Notes under the pieces: generated by a model
What the model was told of the DNA's origin: nothing
The model's database searches: none
Seen by the model: the letters and a program-made list of their open reading frames with translations, nothing else
Part shown: piece by piece, positions 10,280 to 45,527 of the stretch
How positions within the stretch are numbered: position 1 is the first letter of the stretch
Layout: every line of letters begins with the position of its first letter
Origin: Azospirillum sp.
GTDB taxonomy: Bacteria > Pseudomonadota > Alphaproteobacteria > CACIAM-22H2
Direction of reading: 5' to 3'
Assembly: GCA_020249045.1 (NCBI GenBank)
Contig: JADCGK010000049.1
Location: 9,112-73,111, forward strand
Length of the DNA stretch: 64,000 bases
Position numbers and translations under genes: made by a program

Positions 10280-11031
10280 GGGCGCGACGCGAAAACGTCC
10301 TCGGGCGCGCGCCAGCGCGCCGCACGATGGGCGGCGATCCGTCGCAGCGCCGCTTGCGTGAAGGTCCACGCCGCTTCGTCGTGGGCCAGATGGTGGGTCA
10401 GCAATCCGGTCGGCTCGGCCGGATCGGCGGCGCCATCGAGCTTGGCGCGCAAATGGCCCACCAACGCGCCCAAGGCGGGGCCTTCGCCCGCGAACGCGCG
10501 CGTGTTCCAATCCATGATGTCGCAATGCGCGTTGATCTGGACGAGGCCGGCGGGGACGGCCTTGCGCGCGCCGAAGGTCGACAGGCCGCGATAGCCCGCG
10601 CGCGGGAGTTCGACGGCGATTTCGGGCGCGATGCGGTTGTGCGGCGGGACGAGCACGGGCAACGCCGCGGCATAAAGCGCGCGCAATCGCAGCCAACCCC
10701 GCGCCAACTCGCCCAACACCATCGCGGGCGGCCGATGCGCGCCCAGTTCGGCCTTCGGCGCCCCCAATGGCGCATGATTGTCGTGGTTCCAGCCATGCTG
10801 GCAGATCGCAAGCCCGGGCTCGGCCGCGAGTTCGGCCACGGCGCGCGCCGGAATCACCGCGATCAACGGCCGCACGCCGGTCGCGCGCGCGAGGGCGGTC
10901 AGGCGCGCGAACGCGGGCACGGGCAGGGTCGCGTCGTCGTCGCGCCACCATAGTTCGGCGGTTTTGCCGGCGGCGGCGTAGGCGTCGAGCGCGCGGTCCA
11001 GATCGGTCCAGTCGGCTTGGATCATAACCAT
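10276..11031 (-). CDS. Putative polysaccharide-deacetylase-like protein (tentative family call)
   Basis: A 251-aa ORF (MVMIQADWTDL...WWRDDDATLP...HGWNHD). The D-D and H-x-x-H arrangement is reminiscent of the carbohydrate esterase/deacetylase fold. Not confirmed. Confidence 0.4.
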   Translation of the reverse strand: MVMIQADWTDLDRALDAYAAAGKTAELWWRDDDATLPVPAFARLTALARATGVRPLIAVIPARAVAELAAEPGLAICQHGWNHDNHAPLGAPKAELGAHRPPAMVLGELARGWLRLRALYAAALPVLVPPHNRIAPEIAVELPRAGYRGLSTFGARKAVPAGLVQINAHCDIMDWNTRAFAGEGPALGALVGHLRAKLDGAADPAEPTGLLTHHLAHDEAAWTFTQAALRRIAAHRAARWRAPEDVFASRP

Positions 11032-12110
11032 CGTTCCACGATCTTGGCGGTTTGCGCCGCCCCTTCGCAAGAGAGGCCGAGGTCCGGGGGCGGTCGTGCG
11101 GCGTCCAATGCCGCACCCAGCGTTTCGGGCGAAAGCTCGGCTTCGGTTACACCGCATGCGAGCCCCCGACGCACGAACGCTTCGGCGCGGATCGTCTGCT
11201 CCCTTTCGTTGCCTTCGGCGAAGGGTACCAGCACGGCGGGTACGCGCGCGCGCAGCAGATCGACGCACGTGTTGTAGCCCGCTTGGCTGATCGAGGCGCG
11301 CGCGCGGGCCAGGAGGGCGGGAAAGTCGGGCCGATTGGCTTCGACGGTCACAAAGGGACCGGGCGTTCGCCGCGGCCCGGCGCCGTCGCCGGCCAGCAGG
11401 CGCCAGCGTTCGTCCGGCCCCGCGCGACGCGCGGCCAGGGCGAGAGCGGCGGCGAGCAGTTTTTCGCCGGCCGCGCCTCCGCCGACCGAGACGACGATCT
11501 CGTCGCGTCCGGCTTGCGCGTCGGTTGGCGGCGCACCCGCGATGGCGACATAACCCGTGTGGATCAAGCGCGCACCCAGGGACGCGAGTTCCGGGATCGC
11601 CGCCGTGGCGGGCAGGAACGAAGCGTCGCCATGCGCAAGTACGGCCGCGAAATCCGAGAGCGCGGCGAGGCGCGCGCCGAGTTTGGCGTCCGCCGGCCGT
11701 TGGGGCACGTCGCGGATCGACACCAGCTTGGGAATGGCGCGCGCGTGGTCGATCAAAGGTTCGAGCTCGAAGCGCAGCATCGCGCGGCCCAGCGGGTAAA
11801 GCTCGACCATCAGCAGATCGGGCGCGGCGGCGGCGTACACTTCGCGCGTGGCGGCCGCCCGCGCGGCGCGCCAGGCATCGTCGATCGGGGCGCCGCGTGC
11901 GTCGAGCAGGGTCTTGAAGCCCGCATCCTTCGCGCGGCAGGCGGGCAGCTGCACGAGCCGCGCGTGACCGAGGTCCAGCGGCAACGGCAATCCGCCGCTC
12001 GCCAGCGTGGTTTCGTGGCCGCGCGCGGCCAGCGCCTTGGCGATCGCGGCCATGCGCCGCGTATGTCCCGTGCCCAGCAGATGCTGGACATGGATCAGGA
12101 TTTTCGCCAT
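11022..12110 (-). CDS. Predicted glycosyltransferase, MurG/GT28-like (COG4671-type)
   Basis: Starts MAKILIHVQHLLGTGHTRR, a Gly-rich N-terminal loop as in MurG-like GT-B enzymes. 362 aa. A paralog of the gene at 36985-38244. Confidence 0.6.
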   Translation of the reverse strand: MAKILIHVQHLLGTGHTRRMAAIAKALAARGHETTLASGGLPLPLDLGHARLVQLPACRAKDAGFKTLLDARGAPIDDAWRAARAAATREVYAAAAPDLLMVELYPLGRAMLRFELEPLIDHARAIPKLVSIRDVPQRPADAKLGARLAALSDFAAVLAHGDASFLPATAAIPELASLGARLIHTGYVAIAGAPPTDAQAGRDEIVVSVGGGAAGEKLLAAALALAARRAGPDERWRLLAGDGAGPRRTPGPFVTVEANRPDFPALLARARASISQAGYNTCVDLLRARVPAVLVPFAEGNEREQTIRAEAFVRRGLACGVTEAELSPETLGAALDAARPPPDLGLSCEGAAQTAKIVERWL

Positions 12111-12694
12111 CGCCGCTTGAGCGCGAGATTGATTTCCACGAGCGTCGGCGCGCCGTCGGCGGCCACGCGCACCAGGTGCATCGCGTAGAGATCGAGTTTG
12201 TCGGGCGGATCCCCCGTCATGTCCCACCCGCGCGCCAGCGCGTAGACCGCGCGGAAGACGCCGCGATGGGTGACGCACAGCGTGTTGCGCCCGTCTTTGG
12301 CGATTTCGGCGAGAAGCGGCAAGACGCGGTCCAGGACCATGCGCGGGGATTCGCCGTTGGGCGGCCGGAAATCGAGGCCGCGCGCCTCATTCTCGGCGAG
12401 AGCCGGCCCCAATTCCGCGCGCATGTCGGCCATCGTGCGGCCTTCGAAATCGCCCCAGCTCATTTCGACCAGCCTCGGCTCGATCGTATGCGTCAAGCCC
12501 AGCAATTCGGCCGTTTGCCGGCACCGCACCAGCGGCGAGCACAACACGCGCCAGCCGTCGAATTCGTGCGGGATGCGGCGCGCCTTCAGGAATTCGCGGG
12601 TCCGCGGCGTCAACTCGATATCCGCGCGCCCTTGCAGGCGCTTGGCGCCGTTCCAAGCGGTCGGCCCGTGGCGCATGAAGGCGACGAGCGTCAT
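12095..12694 (-). CDS. Histidine phosphatase family protein (phosphoglycerate-mutase-like)
   Basis: Catalytic RHGPTAWN motif at the N-terminus (RHG signature). 199 aa. The start overlaps the stop of the upstream GT4 gene (ATGA). Confidence 0.75.
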   Translation of the reverse strand: MTLVAFMRHGPTAWNGAKRLQGRADIELTPRTREFLKARRIPHEFDGWRVLCSPLVRCRQTAELLGLTHTIEPRLVEMSWGDFEGRTMADMRAELGPALAENEARGLDFRPPNGESPRMVLDRVLPLLAEIAKDGRNTLCVTHRGVFRAVYALARGWDMTGDPPDKLDLYAMHLVRVAADGAPTLVEINLALKRRWRKS

Positions 12695-13782
12695 GCCGCC
12701 AGCCGCCGGAACAGCGCGTCGAGTTCGCGCGCGGCGACGTCGATGCCGTGCGCGCGCTCGGCCTTGGCGCGCGCCGCGCGCCCCATGCGCGCGCGCAGGT
12801 CCGCATCGTCGATCAACCGGGCGAGCTTGTCCGCGAAATCCGCCGTCGAATCGGGGCCCGCGAGCAGGCCGGTCTCGCCGTCGGCGAGGATCGATCCGAC
12901 CGCACCGAAATCGCCGGCGACGGCCGGCACGCCCGCGGCTTGCGCCTCCAACAACGCCATGCCGAAGGCTTCGTTGATCGCGGGCCAGACGAAGATGTCC
13001 GCCGTCGCCAGATCGGCGGCGAGATCGGTCTCGTCGCGGAGGCCCAAAAACGTCACGCGGTCGCCGAACCGCGCGAACATCGCTTCGACGACCGCCCGCG
13101 CTTCGCCGTCGCCGGCGATCCGCAATCGCCAGGGCCGGTCCTCGATCCGCGTCAGCGCTTGGGCGAGCAGCGCGAAGGAGCGCGCCTTGTCCCCCGGACG
13201 CATCATCGCGACCGCAAGAAGCCGGACATGCGCGGCCTCCGGCCGTCGCGCGCCCGGCGGCGGGCTCAGCGCCATGAAGGGCGCGAGCGCGACCCGCGCG
13301 CAACCGGCCGCGAGATGGGCGTCGAGCGCGGCGTCGTCGCGCGGGTTCAGGCTGACGACGGCTCGCGCGTGCGACAGGGCGTCCAGAACGGCGCGGTGGC
13401 CGATGTCCCAAGCCCCGCCCGCGCGCTTCATGGCGACGGAGGCCTCCGCCACGACGTAAGGAATGCCGAGCCGGCGCGCGATGGGCGGGCCCAAATGATC
13501 GGGCGCCTTGTAATAAAGGTGATAGGTCAGCCACAGATCGGGCCGCGGCTTGCCGCCGGCGTACCCCCGCAGCAATCGCGAAGATACGCGCGCGCCCAGC
13601 CGCGCCAAACGCGCCTGGCGCAAGGGATCGCCGCGGCGGTCGAAACTGCGCAAGCGCGACGGCCAGTCGACCGTGTGGCCGGCATGCGCGATCGCCGCGC
13701 CCAGCGCGCGGGCGACGCGCCGGTCCCCCGAAGGCGTGGGATCGTCGGGTGGTTTCAACGGGGCGTAGACGGCGATACGCAT
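12691..13782 (-). CDS. Glycosyltransferase family 4 (GT-B, RfaG-like)
   Basis: MRIAVYAP N-terminus and the C-terminal EAFGMALLEAQAAGVPAVA motif (the E-x7-E region of GT4). 363 aa. Confidence 0.8.
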   Translation of the reverse strand: MRIAVYAPLKPPDDPTPSGDRRVARALGAAIAHAGHTVDWPSRLRSFDRRGDPLRQARLARLGARVSSRLLRGYAGGKPRPDLWLTYHLYYKAPDHLGPPIARRLGIPYVVAEASVAMKRAGGAWDIGHRAVLDALSHARAVVSLNPRDDAALDAHLAAGCARVALAPFMALSPPPGARRPEAAHVRLLAVAMMRPGDKARSFALLAQALTRIEDRPWRLRIAGDGEARAVVEAMFARFGDRVTFLGLRDETDLAADLATADIFVWPAINEAFGMALLEAQAAGVPAVAGDFGAVGSILADGETGLLAGPDSTADFADKLARLIDDADLRARMGRAARAKAERAHGIDVAARELDALFRRLAA

Positions 13783-14963
13783 GGACGCAGCAACTCATAC
13801 AATCTGTCGCAGTTTTCGGCGAAGGGAAAGTCGCGCCGGACCTTGGCGCCCGCCGCCCGGCCCAGGCGTTCGCGCAGATCCGGATCGGCGATCAGCCGGG
13901 CCAACGCGGCGGCCAGCGCCGCCCGGTCGCCGGGCTCGACCGCGATCCCGCACGAATCGTCGAGGAAATCGCCGATCGATCCGGCCTTGGTCGCGACCAG
14001 CGGCAGATCCTGGCTCGCGGCCTCCATCAGCACGTTGGGCAGGCCGTCGCGGTCGCCGTCGTCGGTCACCTTGCTGGCGAGTGCGAACACGTCGCCCGCG
14101 CGCAGTGCCGCGAGCACGGCGTCCTGATCGCCCGCGCCGCGGAACTCGATGCGTGAGCCCAGCGTTTCGGCTTGCGCGACGAGTTGGGCCTTCATGGGCC
14201 CGCCGCCGACATGCACGAAGCGCCAATCGAGCGTGGGGTCAAGCATCGCCAATGCCGCGATCAAATCGTCGTAGCCTTTTTTGGGCACGAGCCGCCCGAC
14301 CGACACGATCGTGACCGGCGTGCGCGCGGCGCGCACCGGCGCATCGGGCCAGCGGGTCGTATCGAGGCCGTGGGGCACGTAGCGCACTTTGCCGGGGCCG
14401 AGTGCTTCCAGATGCGTAGCACCGGCTTTGGTGCAGGTCGCGCACCAAGCCATCGCGGCGAGTTTTCCGCGCTTCTCCCAGTCCGGCGTGGTCCAGATGT
14501 CCTTGGCGTGGGCGAAGGCCGACCAGGACAGGCCACGCATCGCCGCGGCGTAGCGCGCGACCGAGCCCGGCGTATGGATGAAATGGGCGTAAAGATGCGC
14601 GATCTCCGGCCCCATCTCGGCCGCCAGCACGCATGCTTGGAAAAAGCGGCGCGCGCGATTGGGCGTGGGATCGCGCGCCAGATCGGCGAGAAACGCCGCG
14701 CGTGCGGCCGGGTAGCCGGGCAAGCGGCGCGCCGTGCGCCAGCCGCGCCAGACGCGGCCCGGATCGTCCTTCAGATATTCGGGCAGATAGCGGACCGACG
14801 CCTTCAAGCGCTTGTGCAGTTCGTGGACCTTGCCGTCGGTCGGATGGCGCATCGACCAAAGATCGAGTTCGAGGCCGCGCGCTTCGAGGCCGACGAGCTC
14901 CTGGGCGACGAACGTCTCCGACAGGCGCGGCCAACCTTTGACGATGACGGCGAGCCGGGACAA
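13755..14963 (-). CDS. Glycosyltransferase family 4 (WcaL-like)
   Basis: N-terminal GWPRLSETFVAQEL resembles WcaL-type GT4 enzymes. GT-B C-terminal domain with the EAASQDLPLVATKAG motif. 402 aa. Confidence 0.8.
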   Translation of the reverse strand: MSRLAVIVKGWPRLSETFVAQELVGLEARGLELDLWSMRHPTDGKVHELHKRLKASVRYLPEYLKDDPGRVWRGWRTARRLPGYPAARAAFLADLARDPTPNRARRFFQACVLAAEMGPEIAHLYAHFIHTPGSVARYAAAMRGLSWSAFAHAKDIWTTPDWEKRGKLAAMAWCATCTKAGATHLEALGPGKVRYVPHGLDTTRWPDAPVRAARTPVTIVSVGRLVPKKGYDDLIAALAMLDPTLDWRFVHVGGGPMKAQLVAQAETLGSRIEFRGAGDQDAVLAALRAGDVFALASKVTDDGDRDGLPNVLMEAASQDLPLVATKAGSIGDFLDDSCGIAVEPGDRAALAAALARLIADPDLRERLGRAAGAKVRRDFPFAENCDRLYELLRPCVSPSTPR

Positions 14964-33661: not shown

Positions 33662-34990
33662 ATGCGGATTAACTCTTCGATTTGTTCGCTTGTCATTGCA
33701 ACCGTGATCGCAACTGCCGGCGCGCCCGCCGCGTCCGCGCAGTCGCTGCACCGGCAGCCGATCGGCACCGAAGTCGAGGGCAAGGCGCGGATCGGCCGAT
33801 ACGAAGTTCCCCTGCCGCCCGGCCGTTGGACTCTTATCGCGGCCCACGAAACCATTTCACGCCCGATCGACGGATCGTCCGGCCGCGCGACCGGTCATGC
33901 GATACTCGCGCGGATCGAGGGCAATCGTTTGGTCGGGTACATCTCCGCGCTGGGCCCGATGACGCCCAACAACGTCCATCGTCTCTGGGACATGGAATGC
34001 CGCCGGACGGACCTTTATTTCGTCGAATCCGATCCCAACAACAATCCGCAGATTCAGACCTGTTTTTCTGTCTATCATATGACGCGGACATGGACGGCCG
34101 CCCCGAACTTGGGTCCGCTGCACACGGCGGCGTACGAATGGCTGAACGCGAGGCCGGAAATCCGCAAGCCTTCGACCATGATTGTGTCCCGCCATAGCAA
34201 TGCGCGGAACTCGGACTACGTTCAGGTCGAATACAACTTCTCGCCGGAGAGCTACGGCTTTGCGCCCTCGCGCGATCGTAGCTGGGCGGGGAACGATTGG
34301 CACCGCGACAAGCTCAAACACGACCCCACACGCGACGCCTTCGCGCAAGCCGTCCTCGCCTGGGCCAAGACGACGCAAAAACAGGTGCTCGATGGCTTGA
34401 TCCATCGCTCGACGACGGCGGGCGCCGCCTTGGGGTTCTCCCCCGCCGCGCCCGAAGCGCCATCGACACAGGCCGCCGCCCGTCCTTTGCCGGCGGGGCA
34501 TGTGATGCCGGCCGTCGGCACGCGCTTCGTCTCCGCCGGCGGTCACTTCGATGTCGTGCGCGTCGAAGGAATGACGATCACGACCGTGAACGCCGCGAAC
34601 GCCAGCACGATGTGGCAGGTCGGCGGTCTGCTGCCGTTGAACGCATCCTCGCGTTTCGATCGGGCGATCGGGGAAAGCATTTTCCCTCTCGCGCTGGAAA
34701 AGAAGGTGTCGTTCGAACAGCGCGCCGCCGAAGGCACCGACGCATGGCGGCAAACGCTGGAGGTCGTGCGCAACGAAGACCTGACCGTGGACGGTCGTAC
34801 CTATCGGACCTTCGTTCTCGAAGGGCGAACCGAGGCCATCGGTCCGGGCATGGCGGAGTTCGTGCGCAAGCGCACGCTTTGGTATTCGCCGGAGCTTGGC
34901 TGGCTCATTCGTTTCCGCGAAGAGCAGCTGGCTGGTCCGCCGCAACGCATGAACAGCTGGGAGGTCGTTCGGGTCGTCAGGCCGCAATAG
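33662..34990 (+). CDS. Secreted hypothetical protein (signal peptide, no recognisable domain)
   Basis: MRINSSICSLVIATVIATAGAPAASAQS signal peptide. A 442-aa ORF with clearly lower GC (about 60%) than its neighbours. No motif I can assign. Confidence 0.6.
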   Translation: MRINSSICSLVIATVIATAGAPAASAQSLHRQPIGTEVEGKARIGRYEVPLPPGRWTLIAAHETISRPIDGSSGRATGHAILARIEGNRLVGYISALGPMTPNNVHRLWDMECRRTDLYFVESDPNNNPQIQTCFSVYHMTRTWTAAPNLGPLHTAAYEWLNARPEIRKPSTMIVSRHSNARNSDYVQVEYNFSPESYGFAPSRDRSWAGNDWHRDKLKHDPTRDAFAQAVLAWAKTTQKQVLDGLIHRSTTAGAALGFSPAAPEAPSTQAAARPLPAGHVMPAVGTRFVSAGGHFDVVRVEGMTITTVNAANASTMWQVGGLLPLNASSRFDRAIGESIFPLALEKKVSFEQRAAEGTDAWRQTLEVVRNEDLTVDGRTYRTFVLEGRTEAIGPGMAEFVRKRTLWYSPELGWLIRFREEQLAGPPQRMNSWEVVRVVRPQ

Positions 34991-34993
34991 CCG

Positions 34994-35974
34994 TTATTTG
35001 CGGACATCCACGACCACGCGGCCTTGGACCTGGCCCGCGACGATGGCTTCGGCGAGCGCGGGCAACTCGGCCAAGCCCACGGTCTTGACGCCGCCCGCGG
35101 GCAAACCGTCGGGCAGCAGGGCCGCGAGTTTGCGCCACGCCGTTTCGCGTTCGGCGATGGGGCTGCGGACCGAATCGATGCCGAGCAATTTCACGCCGCG
35201 CAGGATGAACGGCATCACGGTGGTGGGCAGGTCGTGCCCGCCCGCAAGCCCGCAGGCGGCCACGGGGCCGCGCGAGACGGTCGAGGCGATGGCGTTGGCG
35301 AGCGTGACGCCCCCGACGCTGTCCACGACGCCGCCCCATCGTTCGGATTCGAGCGGTTTGGGGGGCTTGGCGAGGTCGGCGCGATCGATCACCGCCTTCG
35401 CCCCCAGCGCCTTGAGATAGGGTTCGAGCGCGCGTCGGCCGGTCGCCGCCGTCACCGCGTAGCCAAGCTTCGCGAGAAGCGCGACGGCCACCGATCCGAC
35501 GCCGCCCGCCGCGCCGGTGACCAGAACTTCGCGGTCCTTCTTGAGCCCCGCCGCTTCGAGCGCCGAGACGCACAGCATCGCCGTGAACCCGGCCGTGCCC
35601 ATCGTCATCGCCCACGCTTCGTCGGTCCCCGGCGGCAGTTTGACGAGCCACTCGGCCTTGGCGCGGGCTTTTTCCGCCATGCCGCCCCAATGCGATTCGC
35701 CCACGCCCCAGCCGGTCAGGATCACCTTGTCGCCCGGTTTGAAGCGGTCGTCGGCGGAGGTTTCGACCGTGCCCGTCCAATCGACGCCCGGCACCATCGG
35801 AAAGGCGCGCACGATCTTGCCTTTGTCGGCGATGGCAAGACCGTCCTTGTAGTTCAGCGTCGAATAGGCGACGCGCGCGGTCACGGCGAAATCGGGCAAC
35901 GCCGCCTCGTCGAGGGACTTCACCGTGGCGACGACCTTGCCGTCGATCTTGTCGAGCACGAGCGCGCGGAACAT
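34994..35974 (-). CDS. acuI: MDR-family NADPH-dependent oxidoreductase, YhdH/AcuI-like (acrylyl-CoA reductase family)
   Basis: MFRALVL...VDWTG (catalytic-domain GroES-like fold) and the Rossmann motif VLVTGAAGGVGSVAV. 326 aa. Confidence 0.8.
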   Translation of the reverse strand: MFRALVLDKIDGKVVATVKSLDEAALPDFAVTARVAYSTLNYKDGLAIADKGKIVRAFPMVPGVDWTGTVETSADDRFKPGDKVILTGWGVGESHWGGMAEKARAKAEWLVKLPPGTDEAWAMTMGTAGFTAMLCVSALEAAGLKKDREVLVTGAAGGVGSVAVALLAKLGYAVTAATGRRALEPYLKALGAKAVIDRADLAKPPKPLESERWGGVVDSVGGVTLANAIASTVSRGPVAACGLAGGHDLPTTVMPFILRGVKLLGIDSVRSPIAERETAWRKLAALLPDGLPAGGVKTVGLAELPALAEAIVAGQVQGRVVVDVRK

Positions 35975-36065
35975 GCCGGGCCACCTTTCGTCCGAAAACC
36001 GTCCCTCTAGAAACCCGGGGACGGCGCTTGCGTCAAGCGGCGCGCGCGTCGCATGGTGCGGGCGC

Positions 36066-36983
36066 ATGGCACGCAAAGCGGCGTTGTTCGCTCTCAAGGC
36101 GGGGGTCTCGATCGCGTTGATCACGTGGCTGGCCACGCGCGTCGATCCGGCGCCCGCCCTTGCGGCCTTCGCGCGGCTCGATGCGGGCTGGACCGCGCTT
36201 GCCCTCGCGATCCTCGGGGCACAATTGATCCTGGCGGGCCTGCGGTGGGCGTGGATCCACGAAACGCTCGCCCAGCGTTTGGCCCCGCGCGACGCCGTCG
36301 CGCTCGCGTTCGTCGGCCAGTTCTTCAACCAAACGCTGCCCTCGGCGATCGGGGGCGACGCGGTGCGTGCCGTTCTCGCGGTGCGCTTGGGCTTGACGGC
36401 GGGTCAGGCGACCGCCGGCGTCGTGCTCGATCGCGGTCTTGCGCTCGTGGTGCTCGTGGGATTGATGGCGGCGGGTGCCCCGCTGCTCGCCGCCCAAACC
36501 GGCGCCGCGCACGAGGCCGCTTGGCTCGCCGGGTTCGCGTGCGCGGGACTTGCGGTGGTGGCGGCCGGGCTCGGGCTGGCCGCGCGGCTGCGCCGGTTCG
36601 TGCCGTCGATCCGGCCGCTCGATTGGGCGTTCGGGCTTGCGGCGGACATGCGCGCGATCCTTGTCCGGCCGCGCTTGCTCGTTGCGTCGCTCGCCGTGCA
36701 TGTGGGCGTGATCGCCGCGGTCTGGGCGCTTGCGCGCGCGCTCGACGTCCCCGCCGGGTTCGCGCTGTGCGCCGCCGTGGTGCCGGCGATCGTGTTGATG
36801 ACGACGTTGCCGATTTCGCTCGCCGGATGGGGCGTGCGCGAAGGGGCGGCCATTTACGCGTTCGGTCTTGCGGGCGTGGATGCCGGCGACGCGCTGGCCC
36901 TGTCGATCGCCTTCGGTCTCGCGCAGATCGCCATCGGCGCGCCGGGGCTCGCGTTGTGGCTCAAGGGAAGGTCGGGCGGTTAG
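36066..36983 (+). CDS. Flippase-like membrane protein (LPG_synthase_TM / UPF0104 family)
   Basis: A polytopic membrane protein of about 8 TM segments, with FNQTLPSAIGGDAVRA and LPISLAGWGVREG motifs typical of the MprF-type flippase domain. Confidence 0.65.
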   Translation: MARKAALFALKAGVSIALITWLATRVDPAPALAAFARLDAGWTALALAILGAQLILAGLRWAWIHETLAQRLAPRDAVALAFVGQFFNQTLPSAIGGDAVRAVLAVRLGLTAGQATAGVVLDRGLALVVLVGLMAAGAPLLAAQTGAAHEAAWLAGFACAGLAVVAAGLGLAARLRRFVPSIRPLDWAFGLAADMRAILVRPRLLVASLAVHVGVIAAVWALARALDVPAGFALCAAVVPAIVLMTTLPISLAGWGVREGAAIYAFGLAGVDAGDALALSIAFGLAQIAIGAPGLALWLKGRSGG

Positions 36984-36984
36984 G

Positions 36985-38244
36985 TTAAACCGCTGCCGTT
37001 TTCGCGGAACCGCGCGTTGCCTTCGTGCCCGACCGGCCGTCGGCCGGCAGCCAGCGGCGCACCAACCGCTCGACGTTCTCGAGCCCGTCGAGCAGACCCG
37101 GGATGACCGACGCCGAGGGCGGTTGCTGACCGTCGAGCGCCTGCAATGCGGCGACCATGGCGCCGGTCGCGCGGATGCCGTCGTCGGGCAGCATGCGCGT
37201 GAGGCCCAGCGCTTGCGCGCGCTCGGCGCGGATCGATTGCTCCAGCCGGGGCGCGATGCGGGGCACGATCACCGCGGGCTTGTCGAAGGACAGGATCTCG
37301 CAAAACGTGTTGTAACCGCCCATCGCCACGACGCCCGCGGCGCGCACAATCAATTGTTCCATATGCGCGTCGAAGGTGATCGCTTCGACGCGCCGGCCCA
37401 AGCGCTGCACGCGCTGCTGGAATTCGGCTTGGCGTTCGGACTGCATGAAGGGTCCGAGCACCAGCAGCGCGCGGTGCGGCAGTTTCTCGCCCGACTCGTA
37501 GGCGCGCAAAACCCAATCGATCAGCGCTTCGCCGTCGCCCCCGCCGCCCGGCGTGACGAGCACATAGGGCCGCTCGCGTTCGCGCGCGCGGTCGACGATC
37601 GCGCGCGGCGCCGCCAGCGGAATCGAGCGGCGCAGATAGCCCGTGTAGCTCATCTTCGCGCGCACTTCGGGCGGAATGACGAGACCTTCGAGCGGATCGC
37701 ACATCTGCGGCAATCCGTAGACCCAGATGTCGTCGTACAGGTCGCGCAACGCCGGGACGGCCTTCTTGCGTTTCCATTCGGGTTCGAGCAGCGCCGGATC
37801 GTCCATCACGTCGCGCAAGCCCAACACCAGGGGCACGCCTTGCGCCTTCAAGTCGCGCAGCGTGTCGGCGACCTCGCCGCGCAGGCCCAGAGGCTCTTTG
37901 TCGACGATGAAAAGATCGGGTGCGAACGCCGCCGCCGTGTGGCGGATGATCGAGGCGCGGATGGCCAGGGTCTGGCAGAAATCGATATGCAGATTGAGCG
38001 ACGTGTATTCGCCGTTGCGCAGCTTGACGACCCCCGGCACGCGCACGAAATCCACGCGCGCCTTGAAGTCGAACGAACCGATGATCGGCGATCCCGACAG
38101 GATCAGCACCGACAGATCCTTGTCGGCCTCGACCAGCGCGTGCGCGATCGTACGGCAACGGCGCAGATGCCCGAGACCCATCGTGTCGTGGCTATAGATC
38201 AAGACCCGACGGTCGGCGCCGGCGCGCTTGCTCGGATTTGCCAT
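36985..38244 (-). CDS. Predicted glycosyltransferase, MurG/GT28-like (COG4671-type), paralog of 11022-12110
   Basis: RVLIYSHDTMGLGHLRRCRTIAHAL Gly-rich N-terminus and the GT-B C-terminal domain (GGYNTFCE). 419 aa. Ends 1 nt from the convergent flippase-like gene. Confidence 0.6.
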   Translation of the reverse strand: MANPSKRAGADRRVLIYSHDTMGLGHLRRCRTIAHALVEADKDLSVLILSGSPIIGSFDFKARVDFVRVPGVVKLRNGEYTSLNLHIDFCQTLAIRASIIRHTAAAFAPDLFIVDKEPLGLRGEVADTLRDLKAQGVPLVLGLRDVMDDPALLEPEWKRKKAVPALRDLYDDIWVYGLPQMCDPLEGLVIPPEVRAKMSYTGYLRRSIPLAAPRAIVDRARERERPYVLVTPGGGGDGEALIDWVLRAYESGEKLPHRALLVLGPFMQSERQAEFQQRVQRLGRRVEAITFDAHMEQLIVRAAGVVAMGGYNTFCEILSFDKPAVIVPRIAPRLEQSIRAERAQALGLTRMLPDDGIRATGAMVAALQALDGQQPPSASVIPGLLDGLENVERLVRRWLPADGRSGTKATRGSAKTAAV

Positions 38245-38375: not shown

Positions 38376-41078
38376 ATGGACTTCCTGGGGGGATTTCTAA
38401 TCTTGCGCGACGGCGGCGAACTCGACCGGTCGATATTCCGGTTCGTCTGGCGGTTCTCGGTCAAGGAGACGGTGCTCGTCTGCCTGTTGGTCGCGGTCGC
38501 GCAGGTTTTCTATTACGTCACGCTGAACCTGCCGAAGAACATCATGAACCAGGGCATCGAGGGCCGCGGGATGAGCTATCCCACGGAGGTCCTCGGGCTC
38601 TTCCAGTTCGACCAGATCGGCTATTTGCTCTGGCTGTGCGGGTTGTTCTTTCTGGCCGTGCTGGTCAATGGCGGGCTCAAGCAATACATCAACTCGCTGA
38701 AGGGCAAGCTCGGCGAACGGCTGCTGCGCCGTCTGCGCTACGCGCTCGTCGAGCGCATCCTGCGCTTTCCGGTTCCGCATTTCCGCAAGGTGTCGTCGGG
38801 CGAATTGATCCCGATGGTGACCGCCGAGGTCGAGCAGGTCGGCGGCTTCATGGGCGACGCCTACGTCCATCCGCTGATGCAAGCGGCGATGCTGCTGACG
38901 ATCGCCACGTTCCTTTTCGTGCAGAACCCGATCATGGGTCTCGCGGCGATCTCGCTTTATCCGTTCCAGGCCTACATCGTGCCCAAGCTGCAAAAGCGCG
39001 TGAAGGCGCTGGGCAAGGAACGGATCAAAGCGGTGCGCAAAGTGTCCGAGCGCATCGGCGAAACGGTCGGCGGCATCCAGGAAGTGCGCACCGCCGGTAC
39101 GGCGGCGTGGGAACGCGCGGACTACGCCGAACGTTTCGGGACGATCTTCCGCATCCGCTTCGACATCTATCAGCGCAAGTCGCTGGTCAAGTTCATCAAC
39201 AACTTCCTGAATCAGTGCGCGCCGCTGCTGTTCTATTCCATCGGGGGCTATCTCGTGATCCGGGGCGAGTTGACGCTGGGCGCCCTGGTGGCCGCACTCA
39301 CCGCGCACAAGGACATGACGGCACCCTGGAAGGAATTGCTCGACTACTATCAGGCGGCCCAGGACGCGCAGCAGAAATACGAGCAGGTCGTCGAACAATT
39401 CCGTCCGGAAGCGATGCTGCCCGCGGCGCTTCAGGATCTGCCCGCGGAGCCGGCCCCGGGCCTGTCGGGCCCGATCGTGCTGTCGGGCGTCGGCGTGCAG
39501 GAGGACGCGCAGACCAAGCTGCTCGAATCGATCAGCCTGACGATCGATCCGGGCGCCCGGGTCGCGCTTGCGGGGCCCGCGGGCGGCGGACGCGAGGCGC
39601 TCGCCATGGCGCTCGCGCGGCTGCACATCGTCTCCGGCGGTTCGATCAAGATCGGCGGGCGCGATCTGGCGCGCCTGCCCGATGCGCATATCGGCGCCTC
39701 GCTCGGTTATGTCGGGCCGGCGGCCTATCATTTCTCGGCGAGCGTGCGCGAGAACCTCGTCTACGGATTGCGTCAACGCCCCGTCGTGGCACCGGATGCG
39801 CGCGATCCCGCGCGCGCGCGGTGGCTCGCCGAGGCCGCACGCGCGGGCAATCTCGATCTCGACGTCAACGACGAGTGGATCGATTACGCGCGCGCGGGGG
39901 CGGCGGACGCCGCCGCCTTCGACGCGATCGCCGCACGATTGCTCGAGAAGGTCGATCTGGCCGAGGACGTGTTCGTCTTCGGACTGCGCGGGCGCATCGA
40001 TCCCAAATCGAAGCCGGCGGTGGCCGAGGCGATCCTCGCCGCGCGCGCCGCGTTCCGCCGGCGTCTGGCGGGTCCCGATGCCGACCCCGCGCTCAAAGGC
40101 CTCGTCGAGCCGTTCGATCCGGCGGCCTACAACGAAAACGCCACCGTCGCCGAAAACCTGTTGTTCGGCACGCCGCTCGATCCGGCCTTCGAAACCGACG
40201 CGCTGTCGGGCCAGCCGGACTTCCTGGCGGTCTTGCGCGCGCGCGGGCTCGAGGAGGTGTTCGTCGAAATGGGCCGCAAGGTCGCGGAGATCATGGTCGA
40301 GCTTTTCGCCGATCTTCCGGCGGGCCACGAGTTTTTCGAGCGGTTCAGCTTCATCGCCGCCGACGACCTGTCGGTCTATCAGGCGATCCTTGCGCGCACG
40401 GCCCCCGGGCCGGACGGCGCGCCATCGGCCGTCGTCGGCGAGGACCGCGCGCGGATGCTGGGGTTGCCGCTCAAACTCGTCAACGCGCGCCATCGTTTGG
40501 GATTGATCGACGCGGCCTTCAAGGCGCGCGTGCTCGAAGCGCGCGCGGCCTTCGCCGGCGCCAAGGCGACCCAGGGCAAGATCGCGTTCTTCGATCCGGA
40601 CGCCTACAACGCCGCCGCGTCGATCCAGGACAACATTCTGTTCGGCCGCGTCGCCTACGGCCAAGCCAAGGCGCAAGCCACCGTCGCCAAGGCGATGCGC
40701 GACCTGCTCGACACGATGGGCTTGCGCGAACGGATCTTCGAAGTGGGGCTCGAATTCCAGGTCGGCGTCGGCGGCGCGCGCCTGTCGCCCGCGCAGCGCC
40801 AGAAACTGGCGCTGGCCCGCGCGCTCGCCAAGCGGCCGGACGTGTTGGTGCTGAACGACGCCTTCGCGGCGATCGATCCGGCGGGCCAATGGCGCGCGCT
40901 CGAAGGCACGCTCGCCGCCGCGGGTTCCGCCACCGTGATCGCCTCGATGGGCGATTCGCGCATGGCGGAGAAATTCGCGCGGACGATCGTGCTGGCGGAC
41001 GGCCGCGTGGCGCAGGACGGCGACTTCGCCGGACTGGCGGCCGCGGACGGGCCGTTCAAGGAAACGCTGTCGGGCTGA
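38376..41078 (+). CDS. ABC type-I-exporter-like protein: 6-TM domain fused to an enlarged, catalytically degenerate nucleotide-binding-like domain
   Basis: Residues 1-345 form a typical ABC_membrane TMD. Residues 398-409 are Walker A-like, GPAGGGREAL (Lys/Ser replaced). The signature is LSPAQ instead of LSGGQ, at 40782-40796. Walker B is VLVLNDAF, with no catalytic Glu. There is no H-loop His. The Q-loop-like segment xxP.AY...S[VI].[ED]N[LI]L[FY]G occurs three times (aa 444-464, 577-598, 737-757). Confidence 0.7.
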   Translation: MDFLGGFLILRDGGELDRSIFRFVWRFSVKETVLVCLLVAVAQVFYYVTLNLPKNIMNQGIEGRGMSYPTEVLGLFQFDQIGYLLWLCGLFFLAVLVNGGLKQYINSLKGKLGERLLRRLRYALVERILRFPVPHFRKVSSGELIPMVTAEVEQVGGFMGDAYVHPLMQAAMLLTIATFLFVQNPIMGLAAISLYPFQAYIVPKLQKRVKALGKERIKAVRKVSERIGETVGGIQEVRTAGTAAWERADYAERFGTIFRIRFDIYQRKSLVKFINNFLNQCAPLLFYSIGGYLVIRGELTLGALVAALTAHKDMTAPWKELLDYYQAAQDAQQKYEQVVEQFRPEAMLPAALQDLPAEPAPGLSGPIVLSGVGVQEDAQTKLLESISLTIDPGARVALAGPAGGGREALAMALARLHIVSGGSIKIGGRDLARLPDAHIGASLGYVGPAAYHFSASVRENLVYGLRQRPVVAPDARDPARARWLAEAARAGNLDLDVNDEWIDYARAGAADAAAFDAIAARLLEKVDLAEDVFVFGLRGRIDPKSKPAVAEAILAARAAFRRRLAGPDADPALKGLVEPFDPAAYNENATVAENLLFGTPLDPAFETDALSGQPDFLAVLRARGLEEVFVEMGRKVAEIMVELFADLPAGHEFFERFSFIAADDLSVYQAILARTAPGPDGAPSAVVGEDRARMLGLPLKLVNARHRLGLIDAAFKARVLEARAAFAGAKATQGKIAFFDPDAYNAAASIQDNILFGRVAYGQAKAQATVAKAMRDLLDTMGLRERIFEVGLEFQVGVGGARLSPAQRQKLALARALAKRPDVLVLNDAFAAIDPAGQWRALEGTLAAAGSATVIASMGDSRMAEKFARTIVLADGRVAQDGDFAGLAAADGPFKETLSG

Positions 41079-41089
41079 GGAGAAACGCG

Positions 41090-41551
41090 ATGTCGATCAA
41101 GGAAGAAACCGACGCGCTCAAGCGCATTCCGCTGTTCGCGAAGCTCGACTCGGCGAAGCTCAAACTGCTCGCGTTCATGAGCCAGCGTCTGAGCTTCGAT
41201 CCCGGCCAAGCCGTGTTCGCGCAGGGCGATTCGGGGGATGCCGCCTATATCGTGCTGGAGGGCGAGGCGGTCGTGTCGATCGACACGCCCGGCGGCCCCA
41301 TCGAAATCGCGCGTCTGCTCAAGAACGAGATCGTCGGGGAGATCGCCATTCTGTGCGACGTTCCGCGCACCGCGCATGTGCGCGCGTCGGGTACGGCGCC
41401 GCTCGTTTGCCTGAAGATCGAGAAGGACGATTTCATGGCCTTGGTGAACGAGTTCCCGTCGATGGGGGTGGAGATCATGCGCGAATTGGCGCGTCGCATC
41501 GTCAGGAGCAACGCGCAATTGCGCCAGGCGATGGCGGCCAAAAGCGCGTGA
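41090..41551 (+). CDS. Stand-alone cyclic-nucleotide-binding (CAP effector-like) domain protein
   Basis: A 153-aa protein with the FAQGDSGDAAYIVLEGEAVV...GEIAIL...RTAHVRA cNMP-binding beta-roll and phosphate-binding cassette. An RBS GAGGAG precedes the ATG, which lies 12 nt after the ABC-like gene stop. Confidence 0.75.
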   Translation: MSIKEETDALKRIPLFAKLDSAKLKLLAFMSQRLSFDPGQAVFAQGDSGDAAYIVLEGEAVVSIDTPGGPIEIARLLKNEIVGEIAILCDVPRTAHVRASGTAPLVCLKIEKDDFMALVNEFPSMGVEIMRELARRIVRSNAQLRQAMAAKSA

Positions 41552-41617: not shown

Positions 41618-42766
41618 CTATCGCGCGCGATAGCTTTGCGCGGCCAATGCCGCGATGCCCGCGACCAGCCCCCAGAACGCCGCACCCACGCCGTAAAGCG
41701 TGACCCCCGAGGCCGTGACCGCGAGCGTCAGCACGGCCGGGAAGCGTTCGCTTTCCTCCTTGAGCGCGCCGGTCAAGGCGCCTTGCAGGGCGCCCACGAG
41801 GCCGAGCCCCGCGAAGGTCGCGATGAGCGCCTTGGGCAACGAGGCGAGGATCGCGACCACGGCCCCGGCGAACGCGGCCAGCAGAACGTAATAGCCGGCG
41901 TACCACAGCCCCGCGATCCAGCGCCGCTCCTTGTCCGGATGCACGTCGGGGCCCGTGCAGATCGACGCGGTGATCGCGGCCATGCCGAGCGGGATCGAAC
42001 CCGAGAACGCGCCGGCGAACGAGGCGAGGCCGGTGGCCGCGAGCGCGTCGCGCGCCGGCACGGGATAGCCCGCGGCCTTCAGAACCGCGAAGCCCGCGAG
42101 ATTTTGCGAGGCCATCGTCACGAGGTAGAGCGGAAGCGCCAGGCCCACGACGGCGCTCCATTCGAAGCTCGGCGCCACGAATACGAAGCGCGACAGGCCC
42201 AGTTCGCCGGCGATGGGGGCGGACAGGCCCAGCAGATGGGCAAGGCCCACGCCCGCGAGCAGGACCGCCACGACGGCCATATGCGGATTGAACAGCCGCA
42301 CGCCCAAAAACAGCAGGATGAGCGGCAGCACCAAAGCGGGCGCCGCTGCGGCCTGCACGAACACCTGCACGACGAACGGCAGGACGACGCCCGCGAGCAT
42401 CGCCGCGGCGATCGAGGTCGGGATCCGCGCGACCAGATCGCCGAGCGGTTTGACGAAGGCGGTCGCCACGACTGCGGCCGAAGCGACCAGATAGGCGCCG
42501 ACGGCCGCTTCGAAGCTCAACCCCGTCGTGCTGGCGATCAACGCGGCCCCGGCCGTGGCCCAGGCGGTGATCATCGGAATGCGGTGGCGCCAGCTCAACC
42601 ATGCGGCGGCGACGGCCTTGACCAAACACACGGCCGCGATCGAAGCGCCGGTCTGCGCGGGCGATGCCCCGACCGCCTCGGCCGCCGCGACCACCAGCGC
42701 GACCGTGCCGCCGAAGCCCACGATCGTCGCGATGAACGCCGCCGCCGCGGGGCCGCCGCGGCTCAT
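41618..42766 (-). CDS. BenE-family (benzoate:H+ symporter-like) membrane transporter
   Basis: A roughly 382-aa polytopic membrane protein with BenE family features (MSRGGPAAAAFIATIVGFGG...). The start overlaps the xthA stop (ATGA). Confidence 0.7.
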   Translation of the reverse strand: MSRGGPAAAAFIATIVGFGGTVALVVAAAEAVGASPAQTGASIAAVCLVKAVAAAWLSWRHRIPMITAWATAGAALIASTTGLSFEAAVGAYLVASAAVVATAFVKPLGDLVARIPTSIAAAMLAGVVLPFVVQVFVQAAAAPALVLPLILLFLGVRLFNPHMAVVAVLLAGVGLAHLLGLSAPIAGELGLSRFVFVAPSFEWSAVVGLALPLYLVTMASQNLAGFAVLKAAGYPVPARDALAATGLASFAGAFSGSIPLGMAAITASICTGPDVHPDKERRWIAGLWYAGYYVLLAAFAGAVVAILASLPKALIATFAGLGLVGALQGALTGALKEESERFPAVLTLAVTASGVTLYGVGAAFWGLVAGIAALAAQSYRAR

Positions 42767-43605
42767 AGCGCCAGATCCGCGACGACGGGCACGTGGTCGG
42801 AAGGCTGCGGCCAGTCGCGCGCCTCGCGCAGGATGTGGAAGCCTTTGAGTTTGGCGGCGAGATCGGGTGTCGCCCAAATGTGGTCGAGCCGCCGGCCGCG
42901 ATCGGATTTGCGCCAATCCGAATTGCGATAGCTCCACCACGTATAGACGCGCTGGGGCTCGGGATGGGCTTGGCGGGCGAGATCCACCCAGCCGTGGTTC
43001 TCGCGCATTTTCGAAAGCGCTTCGACCTCGACCGGCGTGTGGCTGACGACGTCGAGCAATTGCTTGTGGCTCCAGACGTCCGTTTCGAACGGCGCGATGT
43101 TCAGATCGCCCACCAAAATGCGCGGCCGGTCGCGCTTCGTCTTTTTCCAATGCGCGGCTTGCGCGCCGACGAAGTCGAGCTTGTGCTTGAACTTCGGATT
43201 GGCGGCCGGATCGGGCACGTCGCCGCCCGCCGGCACGTAGACGTCGTGCAATTCGATGCCGCCGGGCAGCGTGGCTTGCACGTGCCGGCGATCCTCGAGC
43301 CCGCACCAATGGCGCGGGGCGGTCTCGCTCAACGGCACGCGGCTGAGGATGGCCACGCCGTTGTAGCCCTTCATGCCGTGGAAGACCCGATGCGCGAAAC
43401 CCAGATCGGCCAGGGCCCCGTCCGGAAACAGCTCGTCCGGGCATTTGGTTTCCTGCAGGCACAGGATATCGGGCCGGACCAGCGCCACCAGCTTTTCGAT
43501 CAGCGGCAGGCGCAGGCGAACGGAGTTGATGTTCCAGGTTACGAGGCGCGTGGCTCCTCGCGGGGTTTTCGGCGGTCCGGAAAGGGGCGCGTAGGCGTCG
43601 GTCAT
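42763..43605 (-). CDS. xthA: Exodeoxyribonuclease III (AP endonuclease family 1)
   Basis: LVTWNINSV, LCLQETK, ...GDLNIAP..., and DHIWAT...SDHVPVVADL motifs of the EEP/Xth family. Confidence 0.85.
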   Translation of the reverse strand: MTDAYAPLSGPPKTPRGATRLVTWNINSVRLRLPLIEKLVALVRPDILCLQETKCPDELFPDGALADLGFAHRVFHGMKGYNGVAILSRVPLSETAPRHWCGLEDRRHVQATLPGGIELHDVYVPAGGDVPDPAANPKFKHKLDFVGAQAAHWKKTKRDRPRILVGDLNIAPFETDVWSHKQLLDVVSHTPVEVEALSKMRENHGWVDLARQAHPEPQRVYTWWSYRNSDWRKSDRGRRLDHIWATPDLAAKLKGFHILREARDWPQPSDHVPVVADLAL

Positions 43606-43824
43606 GCCCCCCTGTTATCGGAAATCGCGCCGGCGGTGGGGCCAAAAAGAAATGGCGCCCGGCCGGGGGGAAAGGGGCCGGGCGCCTGCGGGATCCTCGG
43701 GGAAGGATCCGTTTCTCGGGCCGTCAGGGGGGCGGCCCGGTCGATCCAAGTCGGGATCGAGCTTCATTACAGGTGGGGGCGAAGTTCGAATCTACAAGGG
43801 CTGGATGTCGTTTCTCGAAGCTGG

Positions 43825-44769
43825 TCAGTCAATAAATTTTCTCAGTAATTTCAGAGACTTATCAAAGTCTTCGAAAATCATCATATGGCTACGGCCTTCC
43901 ATTACCGCAAGCGAGGCGCCCGGCAACCGAGCGGCCGCGTCGTCCATGATGCCGGAGACCCAATCCCCGCGCGCCTTCGCCCGCGCGATGTCGCCGGCCA
44001 CGAATCCGACCGACGGCGGACTGCGGTATTCGGCAAGGCGCAGGAACAATGGGACTTTGCGGAAGGTGCGGAAAAACTCGGCCTCCATCGCCGGCGTGCA
44101 GGCCAGCCGCCACGTCGCCCCTTCCGCGCGCAGCGTCGCGGCGGCGTGATCGGCCAGGGTTTCGGGCGGAAAATCCGCGAACATTTCGCGTTGGGCCAGA
44201 TAGGCCGCGAATTCCGCAGGCCCGCCGGGAAAAACCGCCCGACGCGCCTCGGTGCGCGCGAGGCGTTTGATTTGGTTTTCGTCGGCCGCCGCACGCAGCG
44301 CGTGGCCTTCGGGCGGAAACAGCGGCGGCTCGAACAACAGCAAGCCCGCGAGATCGAGCGCCTCGAACCGCGCGCGATGGGCCGTCGCCAAATGCAGCAT
44401 CGCCGAACCGCACAGCGAATGCGCGGCGTAGCGCAAGCGCGCCTGACCCGACCAGGCTTGCGCGGCGCGCACGATCGCTTCCACATCCTCGGCCAAGCGA
44501 TCGGCCGCGCAGAATTCGGGCAGGCCGGTCTCTGCCGAGTCCGACCCGCCTTGCCCCGCGGCATCGAACGCGAACACGTCCGCCTCGGCCGCGAGCGCGC
44601 GCAACACGCGCGCGTAGCTGCCGGCCGCAAAGCCGTTGGCATGCCCCCAAAGGATCGCGTTGCCGCGACGCGGCCCGCGCAGCCGATAAAGCGCCAAGCG
44701 TCGCCCCGCCGGGCTTGCCACGCGGCGGCACTCGGCCAAATCGGCCGGCAACGAGACGAAATCGTTCAC
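43825..44769 (-). CDS. Alpha/beta-hydrolase fold protein
   Basis: LWGHANGF (oxyanion HG motif) and the AAHSLCGSA nucleophile-elbow-like region. GTG start overlaps the stop of the upstream amidotransferase (GTGA). Confidence 0.6.
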   Translation of the reverse strand: MNDFVSLPADLAECRRVASPAGRRLALYRLRGPRRGNAILWGHANGFAAGSYARVLRALAAEADVFAFDAAGQGGSDSAETGLPEFCAADRLAEDVEAIVRAAQAWSGQARLRYAAHSLCGSAMLHLATAHRARFEALDLAGLLLFEPPLFPPEGHALRAAADENQIKRLARTEARRAVFPGGPAEFAAYLAQREMFADFPPETLADHAAATLRAEGATWRLACTPAMEAEFFRTFRKVPLFLRLAEYRSPPSVGFVAGDIARAKARGDWVSGIMDDAAARLPGASLAVMEGRSHMMIFEDFDKSLKLLRKFID

Positions 44770-45527
44770 GCGGGCGTCCGTTCGGCCGCGGCGGCGGCCA
44801 CGATCCCGGCGAAATGGCGGAAGATCGCGGCACTGAAGGCGTCGCTCGTCACGTGCCATTCGGGGTGGAATTGCAGACCGAGCGCGAAACCGGGCCCGCG
44901 CGTCCACCGCACGGCTTCGATCGTGCCGTCGGCGTGCGTGGCTTCGACGGCGAGCCCGTCGGCCAGCCGGTCGATGCCCTGGCCGTGCAACGAGTTGACG
45001 AAGGCGCGCGGCGCGCCCGCCAGCGCGCGCAAGACGCCATCGGGCGCCAGGTCGATCCAATGCCGGTTGGCATAGCGCACGTTCGGATCGTCGTGGACGG
45101 GCGCTTGATGGTCGATGCGTCCGGGCAGGCGTTCGACGTACTGGTGCAACGTGCCGCCCAGCGCCACGTTGAGTTCCTGGTGGCCCCGGCACAGGCACAG
45201 GATCGGCACACCCCACGCCAAACCTTCGCGCAGCAAGGGCAGCGTGGTGGCATCGCGCGCCGGATCGGCGGGCGCGCGGCCTTCGCCGGGCGCGCCGTAC
45301 TCGGCGGGTGCGACGTTCGAAGGACTGCCGGTGAACAGCAGACCGTCGAGCCGGTCGAGCAAGCCGCGCGCGTCCTGCCGGTTGCCGATGGCCGGCAAAA
45401 CGACGGGCATCGCATCCATGCCGTCGAGCACCGCGTTCACGTATTGCGCGCGCGCGATGTGCTGAAGATGGACCGGACCTTGCTGAAGGTCCGCGGTCAC
45501 GCCGATCAGAAGGGGCCGGGACGACAT
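44766..45527 (-). CDS. Class I glutamine amidotransferase-like hydrolase (PuuD / gamma-glutamyl-GABA hydrolase family)
   Basis: LLIGVTAD..., the LCLCRGHQELNVALGG nucleophile Cys motif and an HPEW His. Start placed at MSSRPLLIGV. An upstream ATG at 45566 is an alternative. Confidence 0.7.
   Translation of the reverse strand: MSSRPLLIGVTADLQQGPVHLQHIARAQYVNAVLDGMDAMPVVLPAIGNRQDARGLLDRLDGLLFTGSPSNVAPAEYGAPGEGRAPADPARDATTLPLLREGLAWGVPILCLCRGHQELNVALGGTLHQYVERLPGRIDHQAPVHDDPNVRYANRHWIDLAPDGVLRALAGAPRAFVNSLHGQGIDRLADGLAVEATHADGTIEAVRWTRGPGFALGLQFHPEWHVTSDAFSAAIFRHFAGIVAAAAAERTPA

Follow-up and report, generated by a model that had tools for sequence, protein, structure and literature searches.

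A 64,000-nucleotide stretch of Azospirillum sp. DNA (contig JADCGK010000049.1, positions 9,112 to 73,111; hereafter the window) carries, at 38376..41078 on the forward strand, a gene for a degenerate protein with the fold of an ATP-binding cassette (ABC) exporter. We found that all of the ATPase motifs of this protein are altered, that a module resembling the helical subdomain of its nucleotide-binding domain (NBD) occurs three times in tandem, and that the gene is followed by one for a predicted cyclic-nucleotide-binding protein and lies beside a gene of a glycosyltransferase operon. On balance we think it probable, from the sequence and its conservation in relatives, that the protein is a nonhydrolytic ABC-fold translocator or regulator that would be controlled by a cyclic nucleotide and would serve a glycoconjugate pathway.

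The 900-codon open reading frame begins with ATG and ends, stop codon included, at 41078, without interruption of the frame. A preliminary description of this DNA, made from its letters alone, had assigned the first 345 residues to an ordinary exporter membrane domain, and our results agree. PF00664 (ABC_membrane) matched residues 34–309 (90.1 bits against a cut-off of 28, E = 2.5e-25), and an AlphaFold2 (AF2) model run on a 75-sequence alignment gave the transmembrane domain (TMD; residues 1–345, 38376..39410, +) the coupling helices and six long transmembrane helices of a type IV exporter (residues 20–49, 80–128, 164–179, 190–232, 243–295, and 316–341). The NBD-like domain C-terminal to the TMD is 555 residues long, which is about twice the normal ~240 and close to the earlier estimate of ~550. 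The Pfam search gave the anticipated combination of ABC_membrane and a partial ABC_tran: the match to PF00005 was split, with residues 383–485 covering profile positions 1–80 and a further match in a C-terminal stretch. The NCBIfam exporter models (MsbA, NHLM, HepA, CydDC, and others) also aligned in two separate pieces, at residues ~37–467 and ~735–898, and the NBD must therefore contain an insert of ~270 residues.

The AF2 model had a mean predicted local distance difference test (pLDDT) score of 87.4 and a predicted template modeling score of 0.81, with pLDDT ~90 over the entire insert. It contains the RecA-like core and helical subdomain of an ABC ATPase (PF00005), and the strand-loop-helix geometry of the P-loop is retained (strand 395–399, helix 406–413). 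When the model was searched with Foldseek, type IV ABC exporters were the top matches (TmrAB, ABCB8, and P-gp at probability 1.00, with E ~1e-18 for these and others); Rv1273c/72c was also among the matches. By its TMD and its structural matches, the protein is a type IV ABC-exporter fold. At its N terminus, pLDDT falls below 50 for residues 1–13, and the 15-residue extension encoded by 38376–38420 is absent in more distant homologues, which begin near residue 16; the true start may lie a few codons 3' of the ATG at 38376.

We examined the ATPase motifs in the window protein and in its family; family counts refer, unless noted, to 67 full-length representatives at 50% identity. In place of the Walker A pattern G-x4-G-K-[ST], the window protein has GPAGGGRE, part of the degenerate element GPAGGGREAL (residues 400–409, 39573..39602, +), with Arg for Lys and Glu for Ser/Thr. 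The position of the Lys is occupied by Lys in 25, Ala in 17, and Arg in 14 of the 67 representatives, and the next by Asp in 14, Ser in 13, and Glu in 13. The signature is LSPAQ rather than LSGGQ (residues 803–807, 40782..40796, +); its Ser is present in 26/67 and its Gln in 39/67 representatives, and its glycine positions hold Pro, Ala, or Ser and Ala, Gly, or Val. The Walker B element is VLVLND (residues 823–828, 40842..40859, +), which departs from the hhhhD-plus-Glu pattern. When the window segment VLVLNDAFAAID was aligned with ILLLDEATSALD of ABCB4, whose Walker B is ILLLDE, the Walker B Asp fell opposite Asn827 and the catalytic Glu opposite Asp828. The preliminary description had noted correctly that this motif (given as VLVLNDAF) is altered, but it took the catalytic Glu to be replaced by Ala; because Asp828 aligns with the catalytic Glu of ABCB4, the replacement is by Asp. 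Across the family, the Asp position is Asn in 28 and Asp in 20 representatives, and the catalytic Glu position is Glu in 17 and Asp in 14.

The remaining nucleotide-contacting elements are degenerate as well. The H-loop region of the window protein reads TVIASMGDS, which has no His, and the family has no conserved H-loop His. The Q-loop Gln is absent: in the first of the three motif copies described below its position is taken by Pro448, and the position is variable in the family. The A-loop aromatic is also absent, and the equivalent family position is mostly aliphatic (Leu in 27, Val in 16). Only two of the 67 representatives combine the Lys, the Ser/Thr, the Asp, and the Glu, and the 52 positions conserved at 85% or more include no catalytic residue. 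In the family alignment, every ABC ATPase motif position (Walker A, Walker B, A-loop, Q-loop, H-loop, and signature) is thus free to vary, and the NBD of the family appears to be no longer an ATPase and to have been turned into a regulatory platform. The losses in Walker A, the signature, and the H-loop had been read accurately from the single sequence, and the pseudo-ATPase interpretation then offered is in keeping with degeneracy that extends through the family.

The same motifs bear on the possibility that the protein is still an NTP-driven exporter with a noncanonical active site, in which, across the wider clade of the window protein, Asp/Glu407 might coordinate Mg2+ instead of the Walker B position (Asn827). 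Within the close clade (identity of at least 49%), G-x4-G-[KR]-[DE] is consistently found with hhhhN-[DE], a pairing that resembles a compensated charge swap, and Asp834 of the D-loop is invariant; in several subclades an H-loop His (VLHNP) survives, as does NE at Walker B, and the modeled P-loop retains its geometry. The free variation of the Walker positions across the family (K25/A17/R14, D14/S13/E13, and N28/D20) is nevertheless unlike a conserved alternative active site. Moreover, the A-loop aromatic and the Q-loop Gln are gone, the signature glycines are replaced, and in the window protein itself the Lys is Arg, the Glu is Asp, and the His is missing. We consider a surviving NTPase of this kind quite improbable.

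Many type IV exporters are heterodimers with one degenerate site, and the NBDs of BmrCD and TM288 were among the structural matches; the protein could in principle be an extreme form of one half of TM287/288, TmrAB, or BmrCD, with a competent partner encoded elsewhere. These exporters and CydDC likewise tolerate a noncanonical catalytic Glu, H-loop, and signature within a working exporter fold. However, they keep one full consensus site, the Walker A Lys in both chains, and adjacent genes, whereas the window protein has lost Walker A, Walker B, the H-loop, and the signature in one chain, so that LSPAQ would be present even at the "consensus" site of a heterodimer. Although partners are normally adjacent, we found no second ABC-like gene within 6 kb on either side at 86 loci (the top 80 loci in GTDB plus six other fetched loci) or anywhere in the 64-kb window, and the top 80 GTDB loci hold one copy per genome. 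The probability that the protein is half of such a heterodimer is in our view very low.

The best sequence and structure matches were the homodimeric, ABCB-like type IV exporters MsbA, Sav1866, BmrA, and Atm1, with which the protein shares a single chain composed of an N-terminal six-helix TMD and a C-terminal NBD fold, and the absence of an adjacent partner gene. Because there is no such gene, the protein is probably a homodimer. It differs from this group in that its ATPase motifs are all degenerate and unconstrained in its family, and in that its NBD is 555 residues long instead of ~240 because the helical subdomain is triplicated. The distance is also evident in NCBIfam scores: against the equivalog models (TIGR02203 MsbA, TIGR03796, NF045513 HepA, CydDC, and NdvA/ChvA), the best score was 171 bits, compared with cut-offs of 602–853, and the MsbA cut-off is 602 bits.

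In canonical exporters, the helical subdomain, which lies opposite the coupling helices of the TMD, is the part with the Q-loop and an ENI-type helix. The preliminary description had reported that a Q-loop-like segment occurs three times, at nucleotides 39705–39767, 40104–40169, and 40584–40646, and these coordinates proved exact. Copy 1 (GYVGPAAYHFSASVRENLVYG, residues 444–464, 39705..39767, +) has N460, Y463, and G464 conserved in 57, 55, and 52 of the 67 representatives, respectively. Conservation is higher in copy 2 (VEPFDPAAYNENATVAENLLFG, residues 577–598, 40104..40169, +), with E593 in 64, N594 in 67, F597 in 63, and G598 in 67, and in copy 3 (AFFDPDAYNAAASIQDNILFG, residues 737–757, 40584..40646, +), with N753 in 63, F756 in 61, and G757 in 67. 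The ABC protein contains three matches to the hexapeptide pattern [ED]N[LI][LIV][FY]G, compared with 6e-4 expected per 900 residues, and translation of the window in all six frames gave no others. In the AF2 model, each copy forms the same local strand-loop-short-helix arrangement.

We then cut the 186-sequence family alignment into units of residues 436–572, 573–732, and 733–830 and compared them profile against profile with hhalign. Units 1 and 2 matched over 73 columns (P = 7.6e-7), units 1 and 3 over 66 columns (P = 1.4e-8), and units 2 and 3 over 60 columns (P = 7.6e-14), whereas the controls (reversed units, TMD pieces, and other NBD pieces) gave P of 0.02 or more. The shared stretch begins at the strand that precedes the Q-loop, takes in the ENLLFG helix, and reaches helices with the pattern vL..hgL.e.vf..Gl. 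When the motif was left out, residues 510–572 still matched residues 763–830 (P = 8.9e-6), and the repeat therefore exceeds the 22-residue segment to which it had earlier been confined. The triplication thus did not vanish on accurate alignment, and what had been called a triplicated Q-loop module is, by these profile comparisons, a tandem triplication of a helical-subdomain-like module of ~60–70 columns.

The three units are elaborated differently. Repeat unit 1 (residues 436–572, 39681..40091, +; supported by hhalign and by the NCBIfam match up to residue ~467) consists of a strand, the Q-loop-like segment, ENLVYG, helices, and a conserved, signature-equivalent GLRG.IDP element followed by its helix; it carries a lineage-specific extra at residues 468–522. 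Repeat unit 2 (residues 573–732, 40092..40571, +; profile comparison) has a strand, ENLLFG, and helices and ends in an extra of ~90 residues (645–732). Repeat unit 3 (residues 733–818, 40572..40829, +; supported by the NCBIfam match at ~735–898, hhalign, and AF2) is a helical subdomain of canonical length that ends in the LSPAQ signature helix, with a strand at 736–738 and helices at 750–755, 766–780, 784–792, and 805–818 in the model. The best-conserved cytoplasmic residues are N594 and G598 (both 67/67), E593, F597, N753, F756, G757, G633, R557, H706, and R707. All of them lie in the repeat modules or their extensions, and selection therefore acts on the modules and not on catalysis. The extras at 468–522 (39777–39941) and 645–732 (40308–40571) showed no similarity to the rest of the protein or to PDB sequences, and a profile of the insert found no PDB sequence at E of 1 or less. 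F644, H706, R707, and L708, at or in the second extra, are nearly invariant, with H706-R707-L708 inside it.

The family is large and roughly constant in length. A whole-protein search gave more than 1474 relatives, nearly all of which, among the matches listed, are ~865–907 residues long, down to 49% identity; a search with the insert alone gave 903 clusters at 50% identity (588 at E of 1e-10 or less) among 1.8 billion representatives. Relatives occur in at least 586 GTDB species genomes, mostly of Rhodospirillales-like Alphaproteobacteria, and cultured carriers include Azospirillum, Thalassobaculum, Nisaea, Oceanibacterium, and Sneathiella. The nearest relative of the window protein is a protein of Tagaea sp. 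(85%). The size of the family, its near-constant length, and its presence in at least 586 species indicate that it is under purifying selection.

These data also decide whether the protein is a pseudogene or an assembly or frameshift artefact in which several NBD fragments have been merged. Apart from the unusual motifs and length, nothing speaks for an artefact. The frame is continuous, as the preliminary description had stressed, and independent gene calls in other assemblies gave a near-identical 900-residue protein (P0001, reported as 100%); hundreds of species have proteins of this length and architecture, at 43–89% identity, and AF2 is confident across the insert. The conservation data refute this explanation, to which we assign practically no probability.

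We found no description of the family or of its architecture in the literature. No specific Pfam family covers it, since Pfam gives only ABC_membrane and the split ABC_tran, and among the NCBIfam equivalogs and PDB sequences searched we found no specific family or relative. The relatives carry generic database names ("ABC transporter ATP-binding protein/permease", "multidrug transporter") and are not annotated as members of a characterized ABC subfamily; the searches matched no described architecture, as had been suspected. For this family, an automatically assigned name like "ABC transporter ATP-binding protein" or "multidrug transporter" probably misleads.

Immediately downstream and, by its spacing, in the same operon lies a gene for a stand-alone cyclic-nucleotide-binding protein of 153 residues (41090..41551, +). 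It starts 11 nucleotides past the ABC stop codon, with GGAG ahead of its start. The protein contains one PF00027 domain (63.4 bits against a cut-off of 27.5, E = 2e-17), and a domain scan found no DNA-binding domain in it. In 79 of the 80 GTDB loci, and in each of the six further loci, the next gene downstream, on the same strand, is an orthologue. Its phosphate-binding cassette, GEiAILcdvPRtA, has G, E, A, I, L, P, R, and A conserved at 90% or more in 86 orthologues; the window version, GEIAILCDVPRTA, contains the G-E...R-[ST]-A pattern, and we predict that the protein binds a cyclic nucleoside monophosphate (cNMP). A link between the ABC protein and this gene had been suggested before, and it is borne out by the adjacency and by fusions: in nine of nine long members scanned (1030–1206 residues), a cNMP-binding domain is fused to the C terminus of the ABC protein. 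The clusters of these fused members include Thalassospira and Bosea proteins, and Thalassospira lucentensis is one cultured host of the fused form. Two distant fused members (P0178 and P0197) have a further C-terminal GGDEF-like domain with no intact GGDEF/GGEEF motif visible, which hints at a link to modules of the c-di-GMP signaling type. The N terminus of the stand-alone protein (41090–41140) carries a segment, iPlFa..KLKLLAFtSeRl, that precedes the beta-barrel and, like the cassette, is strongly conserved in the 86 orthologues; this segment could be the element that docks onto the ABC protein.

Regulatory domains attached to ABC proteins are known from several systems. In MalK, MetN (C2 domain), and ModC (trans-inhibition), a small ligand-binding domain C-terminal to the NBD controls NBD closure, and the fused members of the present family place the cNMP-binding domain at exactly this position. 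These systems differ in that they are importer ATPases with intact catalytic motifs and in that their ligand is the transported substrate or EIIA rather than a cyclic nucleotide. Exporters of the bacteriocin/NHLP type (TIGR03797; TIGR03896 "cyc_nuc_ocin"; HetC-related, PMC10986499) share the association of a cNMP-binding domain with a type IV exporter, but there the domain occupies the N terminus, in the place of the C39 peptidase, and the NBDs are canonical ATPases. The window proteins score far below the cut-offs of these models (41 against 161 bits and 135 against 709 bits); the 41-bit match is a weak one between the cNMP-binding protein and TIGR03896. In one review (PMC10710835), MFS transporters are the sole partners mentioned for cNMP-binding fusions.

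Two other ideas were considered and set aside. A function in antiphage defense is rejected because the PADLOC matches were generic and at the domain level (Pycsar effector cNMP-binding region, 49 bits; mad3, 30 bits); the surroundings are a conserved chromosomal glycosyltransferase locus. A connection with cGMP and cyst formation in R. centenum was dropped because the paper on the CgrA regulon gave no link to the ABC gene.

The second conserved neighbor of the ABC gene, which the preliminary description overlooked while flagging the cNMP-binding gene, is a glycosyltransferase operon. In relatives, five genes divergent from the ABC gene usually stand in the order GT28-like, GT4, GT4, histidine phosphatase, GT28-like, and of the 80 loci, 68, 67, 59, 54, and 58, respectively, contain them. 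In 54–67 of these loci, the last four genes adjoin the first in one contiguous set beside the ABC gene. In the window, the first gene (GT28a) is in place, is transcribed divergently from the ABC gene, and encodes a GT-B glycosyltransferase with a GT28_C-like domain (36985..38244, −; PF04101, E = 4e-7) that matches TIGR00661 (the MJ1255/VC2487 family) below its cut-off. The rest of the operon is relocated, as four intact genes, to 11022..14963 on the reverse strand: by Pfam and NCBIfam, these are the second GT28-like gene (GT28b, 11022–12278), the histidine phosphatase (CobC/PGM-like, about 12095–12718), and the two GT4 genes (12691–13782 and 13755–14963). The same split from the ABC gene is found in the Tagaea loci L007 and L008; in the window, the distance is ~22 kb. 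As to the product of the glycosyltransferases, NCBIfam gave only generic matches (GT4, MurG-like, CobC-like), all below cut-off.

We propose that the ABC protein would act as a homodimer and that its cNMP-binding partner would dock on the expanded helical modules and join or separate the cytoplasmic domains, so that cNMP-driven domain switching would replace ATP binding and hydrolysis. A cAMP- or cGMP-dependent switch would in this way open or close the exporter-type membrane domain. In the open state, the protein might flip or facilitate export of the glycoconjugate made by the neighboring glycosyltransferases, or might couple its synthesis to the signal. Its nearest functional analogies would include the ABCC proteins CFTR and SUR1/2, in which the ABC fold is used for a ligand-gated channel or for channel regulation, along with the trans-inhibited importers whose regulatory domains are C-terminal. 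The stronger version of this proposal, in which a cAMP- or cGMP-loaded cNMP-binding domain acting on the triplicated subdomains drives or licenses the inward/outward switch, making the protein a gated glycoconjugate flippase or channel with its power stroke replaced, is one that we consider rather unlikely.

Several points weigh against a nonhydrolytic, cyclic-nucleotide-controlled translocator. The glycine-rich loop is retained in most representatives (G400 in 56/67, G405 in 53/67) and could still bind a phosphate-bearing ligand. A minority keep the Lys, the Asp-Glu pair, or the H-loop His, so some clades could still bind or hydrolyze nucleotide, and the loss of hydrolysis is read from sequence only. 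Bacteria offer little precedent for an ABC exporter that is passive or ligand gated. Finally, the enzymes of the operon give only generic GT4/GT28 matches, and in the window most of their genes are 22 kb away.

The association with a second-messenger sensor would also suit a protein that transports nothing, namely a membrane-anchored signaling scaffold or receptor that, with the cNMP-binding protein, regulates the glycosyltransferases or other targets, comparable to the control of Kir6 by SUR or the signaling of BceAB-type transporters to kinases. The tightness of that association, the loss of the catalytic motifs alongside conservation of helical modules that look suited to interactions, and the fusion of signaling domains (cNMP-binding in the nine scanned members, degenerate GGDEF in P0178 and P0197) are all compatible with such a role. 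Yet the membrane domain is better conserved than the NBD core (mean conservation 0.50 versus 0.40), and the complete six-helix exporter fold is kept together with its coupling helices, as would be expected of a working translocation pathway. The GGDEF fusions are rare (2/67 representatives), and synteny with four glycosyltransferases fits a pathway that produces cargo. We regard a pure scaffold as unlikely and favor the cyclic-nucleotide-controlled translocator or regulator.

ABC exporters are defined by ATP-driven dimerization of their NBDs, and the family raises the question of what powers or gates the membrane domain when the catalytic residues drift and the modules and the sensor stay. If the stronger version of the proposal is right, this would be the first machine with an ABC-exporter fold in which binding of a second messenger takes the place of the ATP power stroke, and it would be present in hundreds of alphaproteobacterial species. 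The family could serve as a natural "ATPase-dead" system for studies of TMD-NBD coupling and could be a rare bacterial target of cAMP or cGMP other than a transcription factor. It would also offer a handle on an uncharacterized seven-gene glycoconjugate pathway of Azospirillum, Thalassospira, Nisaea, Thalassobaculum, and many uncultured Rhodospirillales-like bacteria.

Adjoining GT28a is a gene for a "flippase-like" membrane protein of the LPG_synthase_TM/TIGR00374 type (35925–36983, +); it had no tblastn counterpart near the ABC gene in the 86 loci and thus appears to be specific to the arrangement in this genome. The flanking genes on the reverse strand (32210–33855, 34994–36328, 41618–43645, and 43825–45216) look like unrelated housekeeping and transport genes: truB, rbfA, a zinc-type alcohol dehydrogenase, a BenE-family benzoate transporter, and an alpha/beta hydrolase. 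The benzoate transporter gene converges on the cNMP-binding gene. Long spurious open reading frames on the opposite strand are typical of the DNA in this region, which is 65–72% G+C.

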